Shown here in pieces: positions 3,182 through 51,723 of a stretch of DNA of 64,000 nt. Origin of the DNA: Roseibacillus sp. (GTDB lineage Bacteria > Verrucomicrobiota > Verrucomicrobiia > Verrucomicrobiales > Akkermansiaceae); NCBI GenBank assembly GCA_051251855.1, contig JBPOGI010000003.1:288001-352000 (forward strand). Direction: 5' to 3'. The position numbers and the translations under genes were made by a program. Within the stretch, counting starts at the first letter, position 1. Every line of letters starts with the position of its first letter. The notes beneath the pieces were generated by a model that saw only the letters and a program-made list of their open reading frames with translations, made no database searches and was not told the origin of the DNA.

Positions 3182-4405
3182 TTATTTGGTGGGGTTTTCG
3201 ATCATGTTGATCAGAGTAGAAACCGCGTGCTCTACGAATGCAGGGTCTTCCGCGGTGTAGTCGAGTGCTTCGACTGTGATTGTGCTGGGGAGGTGTTTTT
3301 GCAAAGACTCCCAGTAGGCTGCATCCAGCTCGGGCTTGTAGAGCTCGCCGCCTTCTGCGGAGTAGCTGCTCACTCCCTTGAGGGGCATAAGGAACACGGT
3401 GTCTTTGGTGGAGTATTGCAAGCGCTCGCCAATCACTTTTGCTACGCGGTCTTGTTCTTCTGCGTTGAGGCGAGGAACGAAGACGACGGGAGCGTGCCAA
3501 GTGATGAGGTTGTTTTTCCATTCTTCTGGAACCTGATGGGGTTCGGTGAGAATGCCGAGGTGCTCGGAGCCGCCAGGACAAATGACCTGAGGGAGACCGA
3601 GTTTGCCGGCAACAGTGAGGCGCTCTGGGCCTGCATCGCGAAGAACTCCCCAAACGCCGTCGGCAAGTTCGCCGAGGGCGTAGTCGAAGACGGCGGTGAT
3701 GATTCCTTCTTTCATCATCTGCTCCATGGCGCGGCCACCGGCTCCAATGGCGTGGAAGGTGATGACTTCGTAGCCCGCTTTTTCGAAGAGTTCGATGGCA
3801 TGCATCGCGCCTTTGGTAATCACGCCCAAGTTGGACATGCCAATCACTCCCTTGGCGGTGGATTTGGTAATGCAGCGCTCGCTTTGGGCCATTCCCCAAG
3901 CGGCGGCAGCGGCGTTAGCGAGGATTTTGCGGGAGAAAACGTTCAAGCCGAGAATATCGGAAACGGCAAACATCATGGTGATGTCCTTGATGCCGACGAA
4001 GGGGGAGGTGTCGCCGGAGGCTGCGGTGGAGAGCATCACCTTCGGAAAGCCATAAGGCATGGCTTGAAGGATGGGTGCACACATGGAGGTGCCTTGGGTT
4101 CCGCCGAGAGTGACTGCGGCGTGGACTTTGCCCTCTTCATTGAGCTGCTGCAGAATCTTGGTTGCTCCCGCGATGATGAAGGGAGTGGCTTCGTCTCGGC
4201 TGGGCTTCACCAGGAGTTCTTCCAAGGTGCTCCCGCCGGCAGCGATGACTTCCTCCTTGGAAACGTCGGCTTTGAGGTCCGATGAACCAACGAGTCCTAG
4301 GTCGATGATGAGGGCTTCACCTCCGAGAGCTTCGATTTCACTCCGCATGAAAGCTGCTTCATCGGCTTTCGTGTCCAGAGTTGCTAAGATTGCGACTTTT
4401 TTCAT
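3182..4405 (-). CDS. Tm-1-like ATP-binding domain protein (UPF0261)
   Basis: ATLDTKADE, GGTQGT, LQAMPYGFPKVMLST, FHAIGAGGRAME motifs. Confidence 0.88.
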   Translation of the reverse strand: MKKVAILATLDTKADEAAFMRSEIEALGGEALIIDLGLVGSSDLKADVSKEEVIAAGGSTLEELLVKPSRDEATPFIIAGATKILQQLNEEGKVHAAVTLGGTQGTSMCAPILQAMPYGFPKVMLSTAASGDTSPFVGIKDITMMFAVSDILGLNVFSRKILANAAAAAWGMAQSERCITKSTAKGVIGMSNLGVITKGAMHAIELFEKAGYEVITFHAIGAGGRAMEQMMKEGIITAVFDYALGELADGVWGVLRDAGPERLTVAGKLGLPQVICPGGSEHLGILTEPHQVPEEWKNNLITWHAPVVFVPRLNAEEQDRVAKVIGERLQYSTKDTVFLMPLKGVSSYSAEGGELYKPELDAAYWESLQKHLPSTITVEALDYTAEDPAFVEHAVSTLINMIENPTK

Positions 4406-40685: not shown

Positions 40686-42059
40686 TTATTCTAACAAGAG
40701 GGTAGGGTCGTCGCTGGCGTTTTCGTCATCGAGCTCGAGGGCGGGGATGGAGGGGATTTGGCCGCCGATGATGCCTTGCATGTCGCCGTAAAGGCCGACG
40801 GTGTTTTTGACGACGCGCTCGATTTGTTTTTCGCGCTCTTTCCACTGCTTTTCCATCGCACGTTTTTCGCGGATGATCTGCAGTTGCATGGCTTCGAAGG
40901 CTTCTACGATGCCGGTGATTTTTTGCTGAAACTGGGTGCCGGCAAGATACTGATAGAGCATCTCCATTTTTTCATTTTTGCCGACGGAAGCGAGTTGCTC
41001 GCGGTTGACGACGAGGAGTTGTTCGCGGAGGGCAAGGACAAGGGAAAGAGCGGAGGCAGGGTCGGAGACCCAGACGCCATCGATGCGGCCAAAGCGCTTG
41101 ATGCTGGCGGGGAGGGCGACGGAGACGAGAATGCCGAGGACGGCGCGTTTCTCTTGCATGTCGTCCTTGAATTTGGTGAGCCAAGCGTCGCTCCAAGTCT
41201 TAGTGTTTTTGGTTTCCCAAAGGATGATGCCGCAATCTTGCGAGAGGGGGGTGCGCACGTTTTGCACGATGTCGGCACCGCGCACGCCTTTGGAGACGGG
41301 GGTGATTTCGTCGTGAGGGAATGATTGCCGGAGTTGTTCTTCGAGATCGATTTCGAGGGCCTCGCCTTGGCTTTCCATGGAGCCTTGTTCGGCCTTGCGC
41401 TTCATGTCTTCGACGGAAGTTTTGAGGCTGCGGATCATCTGGTCCTTTTCGAGCTCCTTGAGGCGGTGTTGCTCGCCGAGCTTTTCAGTGACCTCCTTGC
41501 TAATTGCTTCGCGCTCGGTGTCGAGTTTGCGTTGCATGGCGAGCTCGGCTTCCTCTTTTTCCTTGGCGAGTTCGCGTTGTTTTTTGCGGAGTTCGAGTTC
41601 TTGGTCTCGTAGGGCTTTGAGGCTGGCGTCTTTTTCGGCAGCGGATTCTTGCAACTCTTTAAGTTGAACTTGGAGTTCTTCCTTGGCTTTGGCGGTGGCC
41701 TTGGTTTCGGCTTCGGCGAGTTTGCGCTTGGAGTCTTCGCCTTGTTCTTTCAGGGAAGATTGAAGTTCTTTGAGCTGGTCGGCGTAGCGGGCTTCGAGTT
41801 TTTTGGCGGCAGCGGCTTCGAGTTGGGCGGATTGCTTCTTGAGCTCGCTGGCAACGAGTTCGTCGACGCTTTCTTGGTTTTTGGCGAGTTGGGCGGCTTG
41901 CTCTTTGAGGGCAGTGGTGCGCTTTTTGAGGTCGACCTCGCGTTGGGTGAACTCTTCCTTCAGCTTGCCTTCGAGCTGTTCGCGGATTTGGCTCTGGAGC
42001 GCGTCGGAGAGTTCAAACTGATGGTCGCAGTTTGGGCAAGTGATGGAGCCTTCGTTCAT
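40686..42059 (-). CDS. DUF2130 domain protein
   Basis: ITCPNC N-terminus, long coiled coil, QGEALE, GADIVQ, ILWETKNTK. Confidence 0.85.
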   Translation of the reverse strand: MNEGSITCPNCDHQFELSDALQSQIREQLEGKLKEEFTQREVDLKKRTTALKEQAAQLAKNQESVDELVASELKKQSAQLEAAAAKKLEARYADQLKELQSSLKEQGEDSKRKLAEAETKATAKAKEELQVQLKELQESAAEKDASLKALRDQELELRKKQRELAKEKEEAELAMQRKLDTEREAISKEVTEKLGEQHRLKELEKDQMIRSLKTSVEDMKRKAEQGSMESQGEALEIDLEEQLRQSFPHDEITPVSKGVRGADIVQNVRTPLSQDCGIILWETKNTKTWSDAWLTKFKDDMQEKRAVLGILVSVALPASIKRFGRIDGVWVSDPASALSLVLALREQLLVVNREQLASVGKNEKMEMLYQYLAGTQFQQKITGIVEAFEAMQLQIIREKRAMEKQWKEREKQIERVVKNTVGLYGDMQGIIGGQIPSIPALELDDENASDDPTLLLE

Positions 42060-42181: not shown

Positions 42182-42874
42182 TTAAGCGGCTTCGAGAGGC
42201 GGCATGCTGCGTCTGCGCAGGAAGGCCATGAACCCTGTGATGGCGAGGAGGAGGGCGACCAGTTGGTAGCCGGAAAGGCCGAGGAAGGGCTTGGGGGTGG
42301 CGCGGAGGAATTCGTGGGCGAAGCGGAAGAGGCCGTAGCTGATGAGGTAGAGGTGGAAGTGTTGGTTAGGAAGGAAGTGGAAGCGGCGGAAATTGAAGAA
42401 GGTAAGAAAGGCGAGGAGGTTGAACGTGATTTCGACCGGGACGGAGGGCCAGTAGTTGAGGGGACCGAGTTCGCAGGCGATGCCGCGACAGCAGCCATGG
42501 TGCAGGCAGCCAAGGCGGCCGACGATGAGGGCGAGGGGGACGACAGCGGCGAAGCCGTCTCCGGTGGCTTTGTGATAGCCGAGGACTTTCTTGGCGAGTT
42601 CGACCCCGATGAAGCCGCCGAGCAACGCTCCGGTGACGGACTTGCCGGTGAGCCAGTGGAGAAGACGCTGGTCTGAGGCAGCCACGAGCCAGCCTTCAGA
42701 GAGAAGGTAGGCGAGCTTGGCTCCGATGAAGGCGCAGGCGAGGGCGGCTCCGTAGATGAGCGGAATGAGGGGGTCGCTTTTGCTACGACGAATCCAGTAG
42801 ATGGCAGATCCGATGATGCCGATGAGCATGGTCAGAGCGTAGATGGGCGAGCCTTCTGAAAGAGTTGTTGGCAC
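42182..42874 (-). CDS. Atypical prolipoprotein diacylglyceryl transferase (Lgt) family paralog
   Basis: Multi-TM; GRLGC..GCC.G, WPSVPVE, YGLFRFAHEFLR; GTG start inferred. Confidence 0.85.
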   Translation of the reverse strand: MPTTLSEGSPIYALTMLIGIIGSAIYWIRRSKSDPLIPLIYGAALACAFIGAKLAYLLSEGWLVAASDQRLLHWLTGKSVTGALLGGFIGVELAKKVLGYHKATGDGFAAVVPLALIVGRLGCLHHGCCRGIACELGPLNYWPSVPVEITFNLLAFLTFFNFRRFHFLPNQHFHLYLISYGLFRFAHEFLRATPKPFLGLSGYQLVALLLAITGFMAFLRRRSMPPLEAA

Positions 42875-42887
42875 GAAGTTTTCGATT

Positions 42888-43211
42888 CTAGTTAGAAATA
42901 GAAAAAGCCAAGCAGCCGTAACTGCCTGCACTGAGGCAGAAGAGGACCTCGACAAAGGGGTAACCAATCGCGCACAAGGTCATTTGCCGACCTCGAAGGC
43001 GTTTTGAAAGATTTCTGCCAAAGTAACCCCAGCAGATGAAGATGGAAAGGAGGAGGATGACCCCAGTCCAGTCAGAAAAAGCGGAGGATTGAATCTTGGT
43101 TGAGAGGAAGAGAAGGAGAATAGTGAGAAAGGGCGGGGCCAGAAGAGAAATCCAGAGACCCTTCGTGCTGAAGCCTTCGTAGAGGAGAGGGCCTGGGGTG
43201 GGTTCGGTCAT
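42888..43211 (-). CDS. 3-TM membrane protein with a C-terminal YGC
   Basis: Pro-rich N-terminus, three hydrophobic helices, ends ...CLSAGSYGCLAFSISN; ATGA overlap with the upstream gene. Confidence 0.75.
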   Translation of the reverse strand: MTEPTPGPLLYEGFSTKGLWISLLAPPFLTILLLFLSTKIQSSAFSDWTGVILLLSIFICWGYFGRNLSKRLRGRQMTLCAIGYPFVEVLFCLSAGSYGCLAFSISN

Positions 43212-43735
43212 TCGAGTTCCGCTGGTTCAGAAAGGGTGGTGGGACCATCGATTGGTTCTTCGACTGATTGAAGGTCGTGTCCGGTGCCTTTGATCGCTTC
43301 TTCCATTCTCTGCCTGGCTTCTTCTAATTCGACAGGATCGATGGGGTCTTCTCTGGCGCGTCTTTCTTGCTCTTCCACCCAGCTGTCGGGGGCGCTGTGT
43401 CCCCAGTTGCCTTCCCACGAAGTGAGGCAGCCGAAAAAGAAAAGGGTGACGCAGATGGCGGCTTGCACAAGGGGATAGGCGATGAGGCAGATCACATATC
43501 CCGCAGTTGGCATCCGCTTGAAGAGCGCGAAACCGAAAAGAATCCATCCTGCGATGACGGCAAGACTGCCTAAAATAATGGAAGTCGAGATGAAGTCGAA
43601 TTTGAGATGAGCAAAGGCGAGGCCGGTTAGGAGAGCCATCAAAGCGATGGGTCCCATGAGAGCAAGCCAGAGAAGCTTGTGGTTGATTTTTTTCCTCTCG
43701 GGAAGGCTGGGTGGGTTTGCGAGTTGTTCGTTCAC
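43208..43735 (-). CDS. 3-TM membrane protein with FGC and an acidic C-terminal tail
   Basis: GTG start (VNEQLANPP); three helices; CLIAYPLVQAAICVTLFFFGCL aligns with the neighbour. Confidence 0.75.
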   Translation of the reverse strand: MNEQLANPPSLPERKKINHKLLWLALMGPIALMALLTGLAFAHLKFDFISTSIILGSLAVIAGWILFGFALFKRMPTAGYVICLIAYPLVQAAICVTLFFFGCLTSWEGNWGHSAPDSWVEEQERRAREDPIDPVELEEARQRMEEAIKGTGHDLQSVEEPIDGPTTLSEPAELE

Positions 43736-43790
43736 GGGAGGAATTCTATCGGCTAAAAATGGAGTTGGCGAGGTCTCGGTGTGCAGGAAT

Positions 43791-45146
43791 TTACTCCAAT
43801 CCGTAGTAGCGGCAGAAGGAGTCGAGTTTGCCGTCGGGGCGGATGACGTGGGTGCAGCAGCGGTCGATGCGGTCGTCGTCCCAAGTGGAGGCATCCATGA
43901 AGGGCTTGATGAAGAGGCGGTAGGTGTCCTTTTCGCGGAGCTCGAATTTCTTGAGGATTTCGCCCAGCTCGGTGTTGTCGCAGCCGCATTGCACGAGGTC
44001 TGAGAGGTTGTATCGAATCTTGTCCTGCAAGAATCCCTGCACTTTTGCGAAGTCGAAAAAGTGGGAAACGCTACGCGTGCCGAGGGGGGTCTTGAGCAGG
44101 TAGCCGATGGTGGCGCAGTTTGGATCGCCACAGGGCAGGGGAGTAAAGTCGTCGGGCCCGAGTTCTTCTCCCGATTGTTCCATCAAGCCGAGGATGACGT
44201 CCGCTGTATTGAGGCGCCGCTCTTGGGCGTGGGTGCGGCCAGAGTGGAACATGGGTTGAAAGGACACTCCGCGACAGCTCTCGAACTCGAGACCGAATTG
44301 CACTGTCTCCCACAAGTGGGGAAGGTTCTCGGGAGTGACGGTCATGGCGAGGGTGACGGGGAGGTCGATTTCTTCGCAGTTGGCGAGAGCCTTCTTCTTC
44401 ATGGTGCGCAAGTCGGAGCCACGGAGTTCGACCTGGCCTGCTTCTTGGGGGCCGTCGAATTGGAGGTAGAGCTGGATGTGGCCTCGGTCCGTGCGTTTGG
44501 AGAGTTCTGTTAGGAAGTCTTTGTCGCCAGCGAGTTTGACGCCGTTGGTGTTGATGAGGGCATAGTCGATACGGGGTTCGTCGTGAATCCAGTCTAACAA
44601 TTCGAAGAACTCAGGATGGAGGGTAGGCTCGCCTCCGGAGAGTTGGAGGAGTTCGATGTGGCCTTTACGATCGAGGACTCCGGTGATGCGCTGTTGCAGG
44701 GCGGCGAGGGAATGATACTTGAGGCGCTCGCCGGTGCCGGCGGGGGAGTCGGCGAAGCAGGTGGGGCAGGCGAGGTTACAGGAGTCGACGATCTCGATGA
44801 GAGCGAGACAGGTGGAGAGTTGCTCGATGGTGTCGGGTTGGCCTGCGTTTTTACCTAAGGTTCCTGGGAGACCTGCGGAATCTGCGGGGGAGCAGGCGCA
44901 ACCGGGGCCACAGCGGTTGTCGTCGGAGCCTTGTGCGAGCCAGTAAAAGCGGGCATCGGAGGAGATGAGGGAAGTGGAGGAACCGTGCTCGGGGCAGGTG
45001 CGGCGGAGATGGACCTCGGATTTACCGGAGTCAGTGTTGAGCTTGAGGACTTCGGCTGGCACGCGGGTATGGCATTCCGGACAGCGGGAAGTGGTGCGTT
45101 TGAGTTCGCGTGGATCGCGGGAGAGGATGGGTGGGAGGTTGTTCAT
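43791..45146 (-). CDS. Radical SAM enzyme, Tes/MJ0619 (tetraether synthase)-like family
   Basis: N-terminal CPEC...CPEH metal site, CNLACPTC, LSGGEPTLHP, NTNG, YLQFDG, PLPCGDPNC, PFMD...RCCTH...SFCRY. Confidence 0.85.
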   Translation of the reverse strand: MNNLPPILSRDPRELKRTTSRCPECHTRVPAEVLKLNTDSGKSEVHLRRTCPEHGSSTSLISSDARFYWLAQGSDDNRCGPGCACSPADSAGLPGTLGKNAGQPDTIEQLSTCLALIEIVDSCNLACPTCFADSPAGTGERLKYHSLAALQQRITGVLDRKGHIELLQLSGGEPTLHPEFFELLDWIHDEPRIDYALINTNGVKLAGDKDFLTELSKRTDRGHIQLYLQFDGPQEAGQVELRGSDLRTMKKKALANCEEIDLPVTLAMTVTPENLPHLWETVQFGLEFESCRGVSFQPMFHSGRTHAQERRLNTADVILGLMEQSGEELGPDDFTPLPCGDPNCATIGYLLKTPLGTRSVSHFFDFAKVQGFLQDKIRYNLSDLVQCGCDNTELGEILKKFELREKDTYRLFIKPFMDASTWDDDRIDRCCTHVIRPDGKLDSFCRYYGLE

Positions 45147-45508
45147 AAAGAGAAGAGCATACACCCGAAGCCGATGGAAAAAACCACAGCGGGAGCGACG
45201 AGAATTTGGAGGAGACAGAAGATGAGTGTTTTCCAAGCCACCGAGCCTAGGGTTACACATTCACTGCCGTCTTCGGCTGTGATTTTTAGAATAGCGGCAA
45301 AGATGCCGCTACCCAAAAGAACGAACACTAAAACAAACCAGAAGCCGAGTTCGACGAGGTTGGGATTATGGCTGGCACGGTAGGTGAAAACGTAGGAGAG
45401 GAAAGCGAACCCAATGAAAGAGGCTCCCGGGAGAATCCAGCAGAAAAAAGTTAACCACGCATGTGCAGCAGTTGGCTGAGGTCGTGGAGGTGGAGGGGGG
45501 CTTTCGAT
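45143..45508 (-). CDS. 3-TM membrane protein with a C-terminal FGC (start non-canonical or lost)
   Basis: Frame open from 45574: IESPPPPPRPQP...3 helices...FSIGFGCMLFSL; ATC at 45508 lies downstream of GGGAG; ATGA overlap with the rSAM gene. Confidence 0.6.
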   Translation of the reverse strand: MESPPPPPRPQPTAAHAWLTFFCWILPGASFIGFAFLSYVFTYRASHNPNLVELGFWFVLVFVLLGSGIFAAILKITAEDGSECVTLGSVAWKTLIFCLLQILVAPAVVFSIGFGCMLFSL

Positions 45509-45574
45509 AGTAAGATGATAACTCCCGAGTTTCCTCTGTCGAAATTGATTTCTTCGATGAAGGGATTGAATGGA

Positions 45575-46726: not shown

Positions 46727-46795
46727 TTGTTAATCCACGTCAATTCAGTTTAATTTTAAGTGGAGTGTGGTGAGGTGTTCCTTGTTCTCACTAGT

Positions 46796-47920
46796 ATGCG
46801 TAAAAAAATCATGTCGATTTATCAATTCGGGACTTTCTTGACTGTTCTTTTTGTCTCTCTGTCGTGTTCGAGTTGTCGTGAGCAGGAAGAGAGCTCAGTG
46901 ATTCCGCCGGAGAGAGAGCCTGAGGTGGTTTTTCAGGTGCCGGTGCCTGAACTCCCTGAGTTGGATTGGCAGACTGTAAGGGCCTTCAATCTTCCTTTGA
47001 ACAATCCGCCCCACGTTTGGCCAGAAGAGGCGGTGTTCATGCGAAAAAGTGACATCGTCTTGGGGGTGCTCCTCGGCGATGAGGCGAGAGCTTATCCTTG
47101 GGATCTCTTATCAAACTTTCATGCAGTGAATGACTATCTGGATGGTCAACCCATCATTGTCAATTTGTGCGAAGCTTGTAATGGGGGGGCTGCTTTTTTG
47201 GCTACTTTGCCCGACACGGTGATCGATATTCGTCCCCGAGGTCTGAAAAACGGAACTTGGTATGGAGTCGATTTTCAAACTGGGAGTCTCTGGTACCCTT
47301 TTGTGGGGGAGGCGTTCGAGGGGCCGTTGAAGGGGACGAAATTAGAGCGCATTCGAGTCTATTTTTCGAGCTGGGGAGACTGGATTCGTGACCATCCTAA
47401 TTCATCAGTGGTAATGACCTCTCATGAAGTGAAAATGCGGCCTCACGCGCGCCAAAGCCGGATGGCCGATCCTTCCACATTTAATCCTCAGTATTTGAAA
47501 CGAATCGTCAGAGCGCAAAAGAATCCTAGGCGCTCCCTCTTACCTGGGAATACTTTGGTCTTTGGCCTTATTCCTAAAGAGGGGGAGCCGGCGCGGGCCT
47601 TTACCGTTGAATCGTTGGGTGACACCAAGTCTCTCGTTCAGACGAGTCTGAGCGACACGCCTATCGTGCTGTTGTTGCAGAATCGCTATCAGATTGGAGC
47701 GTATCAGCGACTTTTCAAAGGGCAGGAGCTCAAGTTCGAGCTCACATCCAAAACTCCCTTGGTGATGAAGGACCAGCTGGGTAATCGCTGGGATATGTGG
47801 GGGCGGACTCTTGCGGGGCCGAATCATCCTAGCGAATTGGAATTGGCGGATGGCTATCTGGCAAAATGGTATGAGTGGATTGAGAACTTCCCAGAAACAG
47901 AGGTTGTTAAGGTTGAATAG
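46796..47920 (+). CDS. DUF3179 domain protein, probable lipoprotein
   Basis: VLGV...EARAYP, HAVND, CEAC, TGSLW...GEAFEGPLKG, W..W...HP; lipobox-like LSCSSC. Confidence 0.8.
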   Translation: MRKKIMSIYQFGTFLTVLFVSLSCSSCREQEESSVIPPEREPEVVFQVPVPELPELDWQTVRAFNLPLNNPPHVWPEEAVFMRKSDIVLGVLLGDEARAYPWDLLSNFHAVNDYLDGQPIIVNLCEACNGGAAFLATLPDTVIDIRPRGLKNGTWYGVDFQTGSLWYPFVGEAFEGPLKGTKLERIRVYFSSWGDWIRDHPNSSVVMTSHEVKMRPHARQSRMADPSTFNPQYLKRIVRAQKNPRRSLLPGNTLVFGLIPKEGEPARAFTVESLGDTKSLVQTSLSDTPIVLLLQNRYQIGAYQRLFKGQELKFELTSKTPLVMKDQLGNRWDMWGRTLAGPNHPSELELADGYLAKWYEWIENFPETEVVKVE

Positions 47921-50754: not shown

Positions 50755-51438
50755 TTAGCGGCGACGACGAACGAGAAGGCCTGCAAGACCTAATCCGAGA
50801 AGGCTGAAAGCAGAAGGCTCAGGAATGACCACAAAGCCGACGTTATCGAATCCGATCGAAGATTGAAGATTACCACCAGCATTGTTGGAAACTGGAGTCA
50901 AGAGAGGGACTACTTTGACAGCTAATGCAGCTGGATCAATGGTGTAGGACCATGTGTAGTTCGCCCAAGAGCTGGACTGTCCAGAAGCTGGCATATCACC
51001 ACTATTGGTCAGGATCGTGGGAGCACCGCCCCCGTCAACACCCCAAGATTCCAATTTGACTCCACCAAGGCCATCGCCTGAGATGTTAATCATGTCCATG
51101 CTGAAGTCATAAGTTTCTCCGGCAACAAGGCCCAAATCTCCGAGTGGGATTCCATCGTTTCCTGGGTATTGGAAGTCAGCAGGAGAAACGAGTCCACCAC
51201 CCCAAGCTCCAGCGGTGTTGTCAACGAGGCCATAGCCACCGGTGTTTCCGCCAGTGGAAGGGTAAGATATTAAGGTCTCTGCCACAACAACAGGAGGGTC
51301 GCCGGCTGTTTGTATAGAAGCGAAAGAGCCCCAGCTGGTACCACCCGCGGAAAAGTCCCCGTTAGGAACAAGGTTCAAGACTGCGCTCGCGGAGCCGATC
51401 ATCCCGATGCTAGTCAGGCTTACAATTAGTTTTTTCAT
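50755..51438 (-). CDS. PEP-CTERM sorting domain protein with one CBM-like domain
   Basis: Signal peptide MKKLIV...ASA; LVPNGDFS domain homologous to the 8182 gene; IPEPSAFSLLGLGLAGLLVRRRR. Confidence 0.9.
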   Translation of the reverse strand: MKKLIVSLTSIGMIGSASAVLNLVPNGDFSAGGTSWGSFASIQTAGDPPVVVAETLISYPSTGGNTGGYGLVDNTAGAWGGGLVSPADFQYPGNDGIPLGDLGLVAGETYDFSMDMINISGDGLGGVKLESWGVDGGGAPTILTNSGDMPASGQSSSWANYTWSYTIDPAALAVKVVPLLTPVSNNAGGNLQSSIGFDNVGFVVIPEPSAFSLLGLGLAGLLVRRRR

Positions 51439-51492
51439 GTGTTTGGTTTTATGTTGGTTAATTGTGAAGCCACAATCCGCAGCCTCGTATGT

Positions 51493-51527
51493 TGCATAAA
51501 ATTGCAATCTAGTTGTATTAAATTGCA
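51493..51527. promoter_or_regulatory. Tandem putative operators (copies 5 and 6)
   Basis: TGCATAAAATTGCA (51493-51506) and TGTATTAAATTGCA (51514-51527), 21 bp apart start-to-start. Confidence 0.65.
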
Positions 51528-51723
51528 CTGATTTGGATTTTGCAATGATTAAATTGCCTTCATCTGGCTGGGCATCATCGCTCGCGAAGGTGAGACGGTT
51601 TATTCTTAGGTTCCCTTAAGGTGCTGATTGTGAGGGTGTCACCATGAGAAGATGGCGTCTAAAAAATTCGATTCGGAAGGGAATAACTTGGTGAAGTGGA
51701 GGGACCTTTCTATGGTTCGAGAG

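Follow-up and report, generated by a model that had tools for sequence, protein, structure and literature searches.

A Roseibacillus cassette that combines a second Lgt, a Tes-fold radical SAM enzyme and small membrane proteins with a helix-ending cysteine

What would a bacterium use a second Lgt for, when the gene lies beside a radical S-adenosylmethionine (SAM) enzyme and three small membrane proteins whose last helix ends in cysteine? The question is raised by an operon on the minus strand of a 64,000-nucleotide stretch of Roseibacillus sp. (assembly GCA_051251855.1, contig JBPOGI010000003.1, positions 288,001-352,000), here called the window, whose coordinates are used below. The genes form a cassette that is real and conserved and that we have not found in print, and it probably represents a variant of Lgt-type lipidation that may extend to a new kind of lipid anchor. 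In the reading that we favor, with a probability of about one half, the Lgt paralogue lipidates the cysteine of the small proteins, with the radical SAM enzyme modifying the tails of the lipid. This reading builds on the operon and the linkage of its genes, on the conserved cysteine and its predicted side of the membrane, and on the folds and residue changes of the two enzymes. In order of transcription, the genes of the operon are:

45143..45508, minus strand: gene A, a three-helix protein with Cys116 of 121 (codon 45163-45161), a 5-residue tail and a presumed ATC start
43791..45146, minus strand: radical SAM enzyme of 451 residues with the Tes/GDGT-MAS fold (PF23545 and PF04055; structure match 7TOL)
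43208..43735, minus strand: gene B, a three-helix protein with Cys103 of 175 (codon 43429-43427), a 72-residue acidic tail and a presumed GTG start
42888..43211, minus strand: gene C, a three-helix protein with Cys100 of 107 (codon 42914-42912) and a 7-residue tail
42182..42874, minus strand: Lgt paralogue (PF01790), with an uncertain start in a frame open to 42979

Stop and start codons overlap as ATGA between gene A and the radical SAM gene and between genes B and C. Each small protein has three hydrophobic segments by hydropathy window, a proline-rich N-terminus and basic residues ahead of helix 3, and the segments ending in cysteine, with tails of 7 (C), 72 (B) and 5 (A) residues, are all present as a preliminary description of the window had reported them. 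That description also called the three proteins related. For B and C this holds in direct comparison (29.5% identity over 88 residues, E about 1e-8), whereas A has no significant pairwise match to either (E 0.5-1.1) and joins them solely when matched with a cassette-protein profile in which its own close relatives are included (E 3e-14). The relatives of A in loci L015-L017 are 37-48% identical to it. Family scans of A, B and C gave nothing above cut-off in Pfam or NCBIfam, and an Atlas search with protein C, which returned clusters without a name at 0.92, their recognition falling short of the mark, is a weak lead. In the 48,169 frames of the host genome, A, B and C are the only strong matches to the small-protein profile (E <=7e-12; next 0.01), and this search found no copy outside cassettes.

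The helix-ending cysteine and the genes it travels with

Related loci were taken as the best 80 of 427 genome loci that encode a relative of the radical SAM enzyme, nearly all titled Verrucomicrobiota, and small open reading frames (ORFs) with two to four helices were selected in them by a hydropathy filter blind to cysteine. The last helix ends in cysteine in 159 of 191 cassette ORFs, against 6/25 distant ORFs on the same strand, 7/31 on the opposite strand and 112/470 from the host genome, and glycine, alanine or serine precedes that cysteine in 128/191 against 0/25, 2/31 and 32/470, although these contrasts are not an independent statistical test given that the 80 loci are kin. One to five such proteins are encoded at 78 of the 80 loci. 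Of the [FY]GC motif put forward in the preliminary description, the cysteine and, more loosely, a small residue ahead of it are conserved, and the [FY]G is not: across the 158 distinct proteins that bear the cysteine, the residue at -1 is G in 48%, S in 16%, A in 15% and F in 8%, while F accounts for 7% at -2. In an alignment of 47 rows chosen from these proteins, the mean column identity is 28% and only the cysteine column reaches at least 90%. Judged from these sequences, the family constant appears to be the cysteine alone.

The bias of lysine plus arginine in 110 distinct three-helix proteins predicts an N-in/C-out orientation in 106, with one tie and three opposed, which agrees with the N-in, three-helix topology suggested at the outset. 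The cysteine is thus predicted to lie near the outer face, at the end of a full-length helix with the orientation of a signal peptide. Relative to 67 host-genome ORFs chosen by pattern as ordinary lipobox proteins, the basic patch is found at -23 to -26 instead of -14 to -17, and the mean hydropathy of positions +2 to +5 is 1.80 instead of -0.77. The tails after the cysteine have a median of 8 residues and are at most 12 residues long in 139/158; 5/158 exceed 30, including the 72 residues of B, and a long tail like that of B is present also in L015 and L017.

Gene A has no in-frame ATG, GTG or TTG ahead of helix 1, and its codon at 45508 is ATC. Such a codon is missing likewise in one L015 copy, and altogether in 5/159 Cys-bearing proteins of the 80 loci. 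The copy adjacent to the radical SAM gene apparently starts with ATC or ATT in three Roseibacillus-type loci (window 45508-45542; L015:5627; L017:5671). Two further kinds of small gene were seen at these loci. Tandem three-helix paralogues that lack the cysteine occur in L015 (at 5232), L020, L029, L035, L038, L039, L041, L042, L047, L048 and L053 (7638-8012). A conserved 4-helix gene that belongs to no Pfam family lies ahead of the Cys-bearing proteins in 10/80 loci by pattern (L060, L062, L063, L071, L072, L077, L081, L082, L083 and L092) and in a few more by eye, L085:4621-5034 among them.

The pairing of these proteins with Lgt and a radical SAM enzyme, which the preliminary description had anticipated, is borne out. 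An Lgt paralogue lies downstream of the radical SAM gene in 65/80 loci, and 13 of the 15 loci without one end within 1.2 kb. Among 41 related genomes the cassette is patchy, and the same 8 genomes hold both the radical SAM gene and the Lgt paralogue; a profile of C-like proteins matched 4/41 genomes, in each case within a cassette, but did not pick up the partners of the four remaining cassette genomes. The closest named relatives of the radical SAM gene, among the matches listed, are Roseibacillus records at 88-94%. Plasmid records from two Bacteroidota and Mycobacterium branderi also combine the paralogue, the radical SAM gene and membrane proteins of 59-151 residues ending in G-x-C. In L015 the operon is split by a 777-residue gene on the opposite strand (L015:7423-9768, minus strand), which separates gene B from the radical SAM gene.

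The association extends to 80 metagenome loci (G+C 0.26-0.74), of which 58 carry an Lgt-like gene on the same strand; partners there were taken as small hydrophobic ORFs with a cysteine after 13 uncharged residues. Near Lgt-bearing loci, 58/81 small hydrophobic ORFs pass this filter, compared with 1/8 further away, and among the 48 loci with 500 bases on both sides a Cys-bearing partner is found in 34/38 with Lgt and 2/10 without. In the 58 distant partners the cysteine ends the last helix in 31, is followed by another helix in 20, often then ending helix 1, and is followed by a soluble part in 7; 55% have L, V or I at position -1. At L115 an ordinary N-terminal lipobox protein sits between the Lgt and radical SAM genes. 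Across clades, therefore, the small proteins range from one to three helices to a soluble lipoprotein, and because of these architectures we take an in-to-out helix whose outer end bears a cysteine to be the constant, and not the C-terminal place of that cysteine. The proposal of a lipobox at the opposite end of the protein from normal accordingly stands for the window's clade only, since elsewhere the cysteine helix is the first helix in the normal in-to-out orientation. Lipobox proteins of 213-228 residues, with hydrophobic residues after the box and no Pfam family, replace the small proteins at L115:5608-6294 (minus strand) and L202:5476-6117.

Could the radical SAM gene merely accompany the Lgt paralogue and its substrates, while acting on a non-lipid substrate of its own? 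Relatives without Lgt do exist: about half of 11 plasmid matches are haloarchaeal, L107 and L109 have a methyltransferase instead, and in a 400-genome sample of the phylum 10 of the 14 other genomes with a radical SAM match have no Lgt match beside the gene. However, the overlapping codons and the identical set of 8 genomes argue against this, as does the finding that, of the 20 genomes in the sample with an Lgt match, the four whose Lgt adjoins a radical SAM gene carry it as a second copy that groups with the cassette clade. We therefore regard mere co-travel as very unlikely.

The small proteins had also been likened to precursors of peptides made on ribosomes and modified after translation (RiPPs), with variable cargo on a conserved leader. 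On such a scheme the paralogue would lipidate the cysteine, LspA would cut ahead of it, and a short lipopeptide, perhaps modified by the radical SAM enzyme, would be released. The genome encodes LspA, the helix has the orientation of a signal peptide, 111/158 boxes fit a loose lipobox pattern, and there are several precursor-like genes per locus. The supposed leader, however, is the fastest-changing part of the operon, at 42-49% identity where the radical SAM enzyme has 94%. In comparison with L015, the rate of non-synonymous change (dN) is 0.36-0.53 for the small proteins, 0.043 for the radical SAM enzyme and 0.144 for the Lgt paralogue, so that the small proteins diverge at roughly ten times the rate of the radical SAM enzyme, with dN below the synonymous rate (dS) and synonymous sites near saturation. 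The tails make poor cargo, being short and hydrophobic, and another helix follows the cysteine in the 20 distant partners noted above, whose group often has L, V or I at -1, outside the [GAS] of the lipobox. In addition, a tail on the outer side would be out of reach for a cytoplasmic enzyme. No cassette protease turned up, in an analysis that included no systematic protease search. The conserved-leader comparison is thus not supported, and release of a lipopeptide is in our view quite unlikely.

The Lgt paralogue

The paralogue is a second copy, as a canonical Lgt and LspA are encoded elsewhere in the same genome. It matches PF01790 with 74.8 bits (cut-off 24.9) and stays below the cut-off of TIGR00544 (31.9 against 118.9). 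Its predicted model (pLDDT 93) has the Lgt structure 5AZB as the sole fold match below E 0.001 (E 1.9e-5), and a sequence search of the PDB gave no real match. For residue comparison, E. coli Lgt numbering and roles (PMC8689077, PMC13251419) were carried over through the host's canonical Lgt, the E. coli sequence itself being outside the alignment. The window paralogue keeps the equivalents of R143, E202, Y235, R239, E243 and R246, has Thr in place of His103 and has Cys in place of Asn146. The headgroup residues R143 (66/66), E202, Y235 (65/66), R239 (65/66) and E243 are kept in 65-66 of 66 clade paralogues, and R246 in 65/66.

Cysteine at position 146, present in 66/66 clade paralogues, was considered as a catalytic change specific to the cassette and rejected. 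Of the 16 phylum-sample Lgts that do not adjoin a radical SAM gene, 15 were compared (L118-L132, from several classes of the phylum), and they have Cys146 in 15/15 and Tyr103 in 14/15; for all six of the Cys146 Lgts tested, no other Lgt was found in the genome, and LspA was present in 4/5 genomes tested. An Lgt with Cys146 can thus be a working enzyme, given that sole Lgts bear it, and a Leptospira Lgt with Cys146 is described as partly complementing E. coli (PMC13251419). In a quick, unrooted tree of 89 rows, in which every fifth of 65 clade members was kept, a single branch with support 98 separates cassette from housekeeping Lgts, and the four radical-SAM-adjacent Lgts of the phylum sample group with the cassette clade.

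A predicted complex of the paralogue with protein C scored 0.48, against 0.00 for the best of 3 controls, with contacts that agree by at least 73% and a partner pLDDT of at least 75. The mark applied is reached by 116/157 solved and 2/215 mismatched pairs, but at scores up to 0.60 by 18/157 solved pairs and by both mismatches. The prediction lends weak support to the pairing, and its score may reflect likeness to a solved complex.

Taken alone, the proposal that the paralogue lipidates the cysteine is likely in our judgment. It is suggested by the Lgt geometry of the acceptor helix, from the way the small proteins travel only with the paralogue, from the ordinary lipoprotein that replaces them in L115, and from an off-standard box that fits a private substrate. 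The predicted side of the cysteine matches that of the reaction, as Lgt acts at the outer face of the inner membrane (PMC8689077).

The Tes-fold radical SAM enzyme

By sequence family, the radical SAM enzyme comes closest to TrsS (NF045646), its best NCBIfam match, which covers the whole length with 204 of 490 bits, followed by Tes (NF045702) with 159 of 450 bits; both stay below their cut-offs. By structure, GDGT-MAS (7TOL) is the nearest match by a wide margin, in sequence at E 1e-35 and in fold at E 2e-27, with a TM-score of 0.73 and 24% identity (model pLDDT 80). The next fold match is a peptide maturase with a TM-score of 0.38, and this far worse fit of peptide-modifying structures is a further argument against the RiPP scheme. 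RiPP systems with radical SAM maturases likewise keep the maturase gene in the company of several small genes that vary, but the cassette substrates are integral membrane proteins with no conserved leader, and the enzyme has the fold of a lipid enzyme.

The rubredoxin-like site (C22/C25/C51/H54) and the radical SAM triad (C123/C127/C130) are invariant in 78/78 clade enzymes, and the CC...C set (C430/C431/C445), which presumably binds the C-terminal cluster, is found in 77/77 parsed. The clade has four extra invariant cysteines (C339, C344, C387 and C389), and Lys and Val stand in 77/77 at the places of Met439 and Tyr459. GDGT-MAS couples lipid tails through a carbon-sulfur intermediate, and Met439 and Tyr459 are dispensable in vitro (Lloyd et al., PMC9433317).

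This chemistry allows for a different role, in which the radical SAM enzyme joins a lipid-tail radical to the protein cysteine or to a cluster sulfide and the paralogue only presents the lipid or the protein, transferring no diacylglyceryl group. In GDGT-MAS the carbon-sulfur intermediate forms on the C-terminal cluster (PMC9433317), the Met439-to-Lys change may leave an open iron site, methyltransferases lie beside many relatives, and His103 is lost from the paralogue. Nevertheless, the cysteine faces away from the cytoplasm in the 106/110 proteins above, the paralogue retains its headgroup-binding residues, and the M439A variant of GDGT-MAS is still active in carbon-carbon coupling (PMC9433317). 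Such sulfur capture therefore seems improbable to us.

Alternatively, free lipid may be the end product, with the small proteins carrying the lipid or serving as subunits of a lipid synthase made up of the paralogue and the radical SAM enzyme, and their cysteine loaded transiently with an acyl or glyceryl group. Bacterial Tes homologues have been proposed as membrane-spanning lipid synthases (PMC8941075). The absence of His103 from the paralogue would suit this arrangement, as would two neighboring genes, a lipid desaturase upstream of the cassette and an ICMT/PEMT-family methyltransferase after the radical SAM gene. However, the small proteins come in one to five copies, change fast and vary in architecture. 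Carriers and subunits are usually single-copy and conserved, and a thioether is a poor leaving group, both of which count against a transient role, and we consider it unlikely.

The desaturase gene (PF10520) was seen in 2/80 loci, about 1.3-2 kb upstream of the cassette (L079, and L087 at 3584-4201). The methyltransferase is inserted in the cassette of one subclade together with a DUF4395-like gene, and follows the radical SAM gene in L134, L135, L136, L138, L140, L141, L144 and L145; it is also present at L115:3567-4250. ICMT methylates lipidated C-terminal cysteines in eukaryotes, and the family also methylates lipids; an ICMT-family gene in the cassette would fit trimming after the cysteine. 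A class I methyltransferase follows the radical SAM gene in the Lgt-less relatives L152, L167, L191, L196, L107 and L109. Tandem radical SAM genes are found at L117, and nearby pairs of Tes-like radical SAM genes at G234:C1:1903412-1907798, G182:C50, G362:C20, G384:C16 and G282:C67 and C71, in genomes that gave no Lgt match at E 1e-8.

A proposed route and its place among known systems

How could the two enzymes work together? In the lipidation reading that we favor, the acceptors, as sequence and gene context show, are small proteins of the inner membrane, one to five per cassette, whose in-to-out helix has its terminal cysteine at the outer face. The paralogue, and not the housekeeping Lgt, would recognize the non-standard box and transfer a diacylglyceryl-type group from a phospholipid donor to the cysteine as a thioether. 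The Tes-fold enzyme would use radical chemistry to modify acyl tails, in the simplest case those of the donor phospholipid ahead of the transfer step, and tail-to-tail coupling would be at hand as the known reaction of the fold. We infer tails and not the cysteine as its target because a cytoplasmic enzyme cannot reach the cysteine, and this part of the reading is weaker than the part assigned to the paralogue. The product would be a small membrane protein with an altered lipid, probably uncleaved. An accessory role in the envelope would fit the fast divergence, the change in copy number and the patchy presence (8/41 genomes).

A more specific version, which we advance only tentatively and consider doubtful, is that the Tes-fold enzyme joins the tails of two phospholipids and the paralogue transfers the outer head group of the resulting spanning lipid to the cysteine, giving a bolaform anchor through the bilayer. 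The coupled lipid would already show a head group at the outer face, so the paralogue could transfer it. If this is correct, a protein-bound spanning lipid held by a thioether would escape extraction with solvents, and the task of many bacterial Tes homologues would be to modify proteins and not the bulk synthesis of membrane-spanning lipids.

Several observations weigh against the lipidation reading. On the side of the acceptor, 32/191 cassette ORFs lack the cysteine, about a dozen of them evident paralogues and the others a different 4-helix gene and spurious frames. The strict lipobox [LVI][ASTVI][GAS]C fits 15/158 boxes and none of those of A, B and C. The helix ahead of the cysteine is about 8 residues longer than in lipoproteins and hydrophobic beyond it, so the cysteine possibly lies deeper in the membrane. 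With regard to linkage, L043 and L057 have no Lgt match within 6 kb, and 7/12 small ORFs near Lgt-less metagenome loci pass the cysteine filter, many of these loci being short. In the paralogue, position 103 is L, M, T, V or I in 66/66 clade members, where H, Y, W or F stands in housekeeping Lgts, so that the loss of His or an aromatic residue is specific to the cassette copies; the H103A change kills E. coli Lgt (PMC13251419). Position 100 is Lys in 66/66 clade paralogues and K, R or H in 52/59 distant cassette copies, which makes Lys100 at most a candidate for the catalytic base. Lastly, the radical SAM enzymes of the clade lack the N-terminal auxiliary cluster motif (C73, C77, C80, His), found in 0/77 against 54/54 distant Lgt-linked enzymes, although the near-invariant C79 and C85 may substitute for its ligands. 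The last C-terminal cysteine is E, D or S in 49/54 of those distant enzymes. Given this loss and the methyltransferases beside Lgt-less relatives, a uniform chemistry across the relatives is less likely, and given the same methyltransferases and the higher score of TrsS over Tes, a lipid substrate is not settled by the fold.

The nearest known system is canonical lipoprotein maturation by Lgt (5AZB), LspA and Lnt, with which the cassette shares the Lgt fold, the headgroup residues, the basic-inside, in-to-out helix and the outer cysteine. It differs in that its Lgt is a second copy without His103, coupled to a radical SAM enzyme, and in that it has polytopic microproteins as acceptors, whose mature domain is small or absent and whose off-consensus box is followed by hydrophobic residues. 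The lipobox of a canonical lipoprotein belongs to a signal peptide of about 16-26 residues at the N-terminus (PMC8689077), whereas the cysteines of the window lie at residues 100, 103 and 116 after three helices, and the cassette family lacks the polar linker and mature domain that follow the cysteine of a lipoprotein.

With Tes/GDGT-MAS of M. jannaschii (MJ0619, 7TOL/7TOM), the window enzyme shares the whole-chain fold, the rubredoxin-like site, the radical SAM triad and the CC...C set. It departs from it at Met439 and Tyr459, which are described as invariant in archaeal homologues (PMC9433317), in the replaced N-terminal motif and the four extra cysteines, and in its bacterial host, Lgt linkage and score far below the family cut-off. 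The TrsS radical SAM (seleno)protein is the best family match over the whole length, but it has a different gene context, and its entry names no reaction. The second Lgt of M. smegmatis, MSMEG_5408, is also a second copy, with Y26H and N146C and a presumed low Lgt activity (PMC13251419), and a preference for other lipids has been suggested as a speculation (bioRxiv 10.1101/2025.01.07.631728). At the corresponding motifs, His and Cys also occur in the cassette Lgt of L108, whereas the window paralogue keeps Tyr at the Y26H place. The available portions of the sources on MSMEG_5408 link it to neither a radical SAM gene nor small proteins.

Literature combining Tes or radical SAM enzymes with Lgt was not found in a search that covered few subscription papers, and the term internal lipobox was absent from the literature matches listed. 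The terms Lgt and lipoprotein are absent from the available text of a 2026 review of lipid-modifying radical SAM enzymes (PMC13459092), and the available text of PMC8941075 does not mention lipoproteins with bacterial Tes homologues. That study counted 456 such homologues and left their activity open (Zeng et al., PMC8941075). For this large Tes-fold group the cassette offers a partner enzyme, an acceptor residue and a direct assay, and it bears on whether Tes matches can be read as marking producers of branched tetraethers. Lgt is known for its action on N-terminal signal peptides, so bacterial protein lipidation would also be widened by a dedicated paralogue whose target is the internal or terminal helix of microproteins. 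The cassette further bears on a reported finding in Acidobacteria, whose iso-diabolic acid is freed only by hydrolysis of cell material (PMC13274423), the link between the two being a possibility only.

In the surroundings of the operon, promoter and terminator scans were at chance level (2 against 1.4 and 10 against 9.3), and the same applies to a promoter-like site ending at 45515, upstream of gene A. The neighboring features are:

40686-42059, minus strand: DUF2130 gene, downstream of the Lgt paralogue on the same strand
46760-47920, plus strand: DUF3179 gene, 1.2 kb from the cassette
50755-51528, minus strand: ORF of 257 residues

Two more DUF3179 genes lie upstream of an Lgt-less relative on a haloarchaeal plasmid (L109:1678-4412), and the proximity is probably a coincidence. 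The tail of the 257-residue ORF is one that we take to be PEP-CTERM-like.

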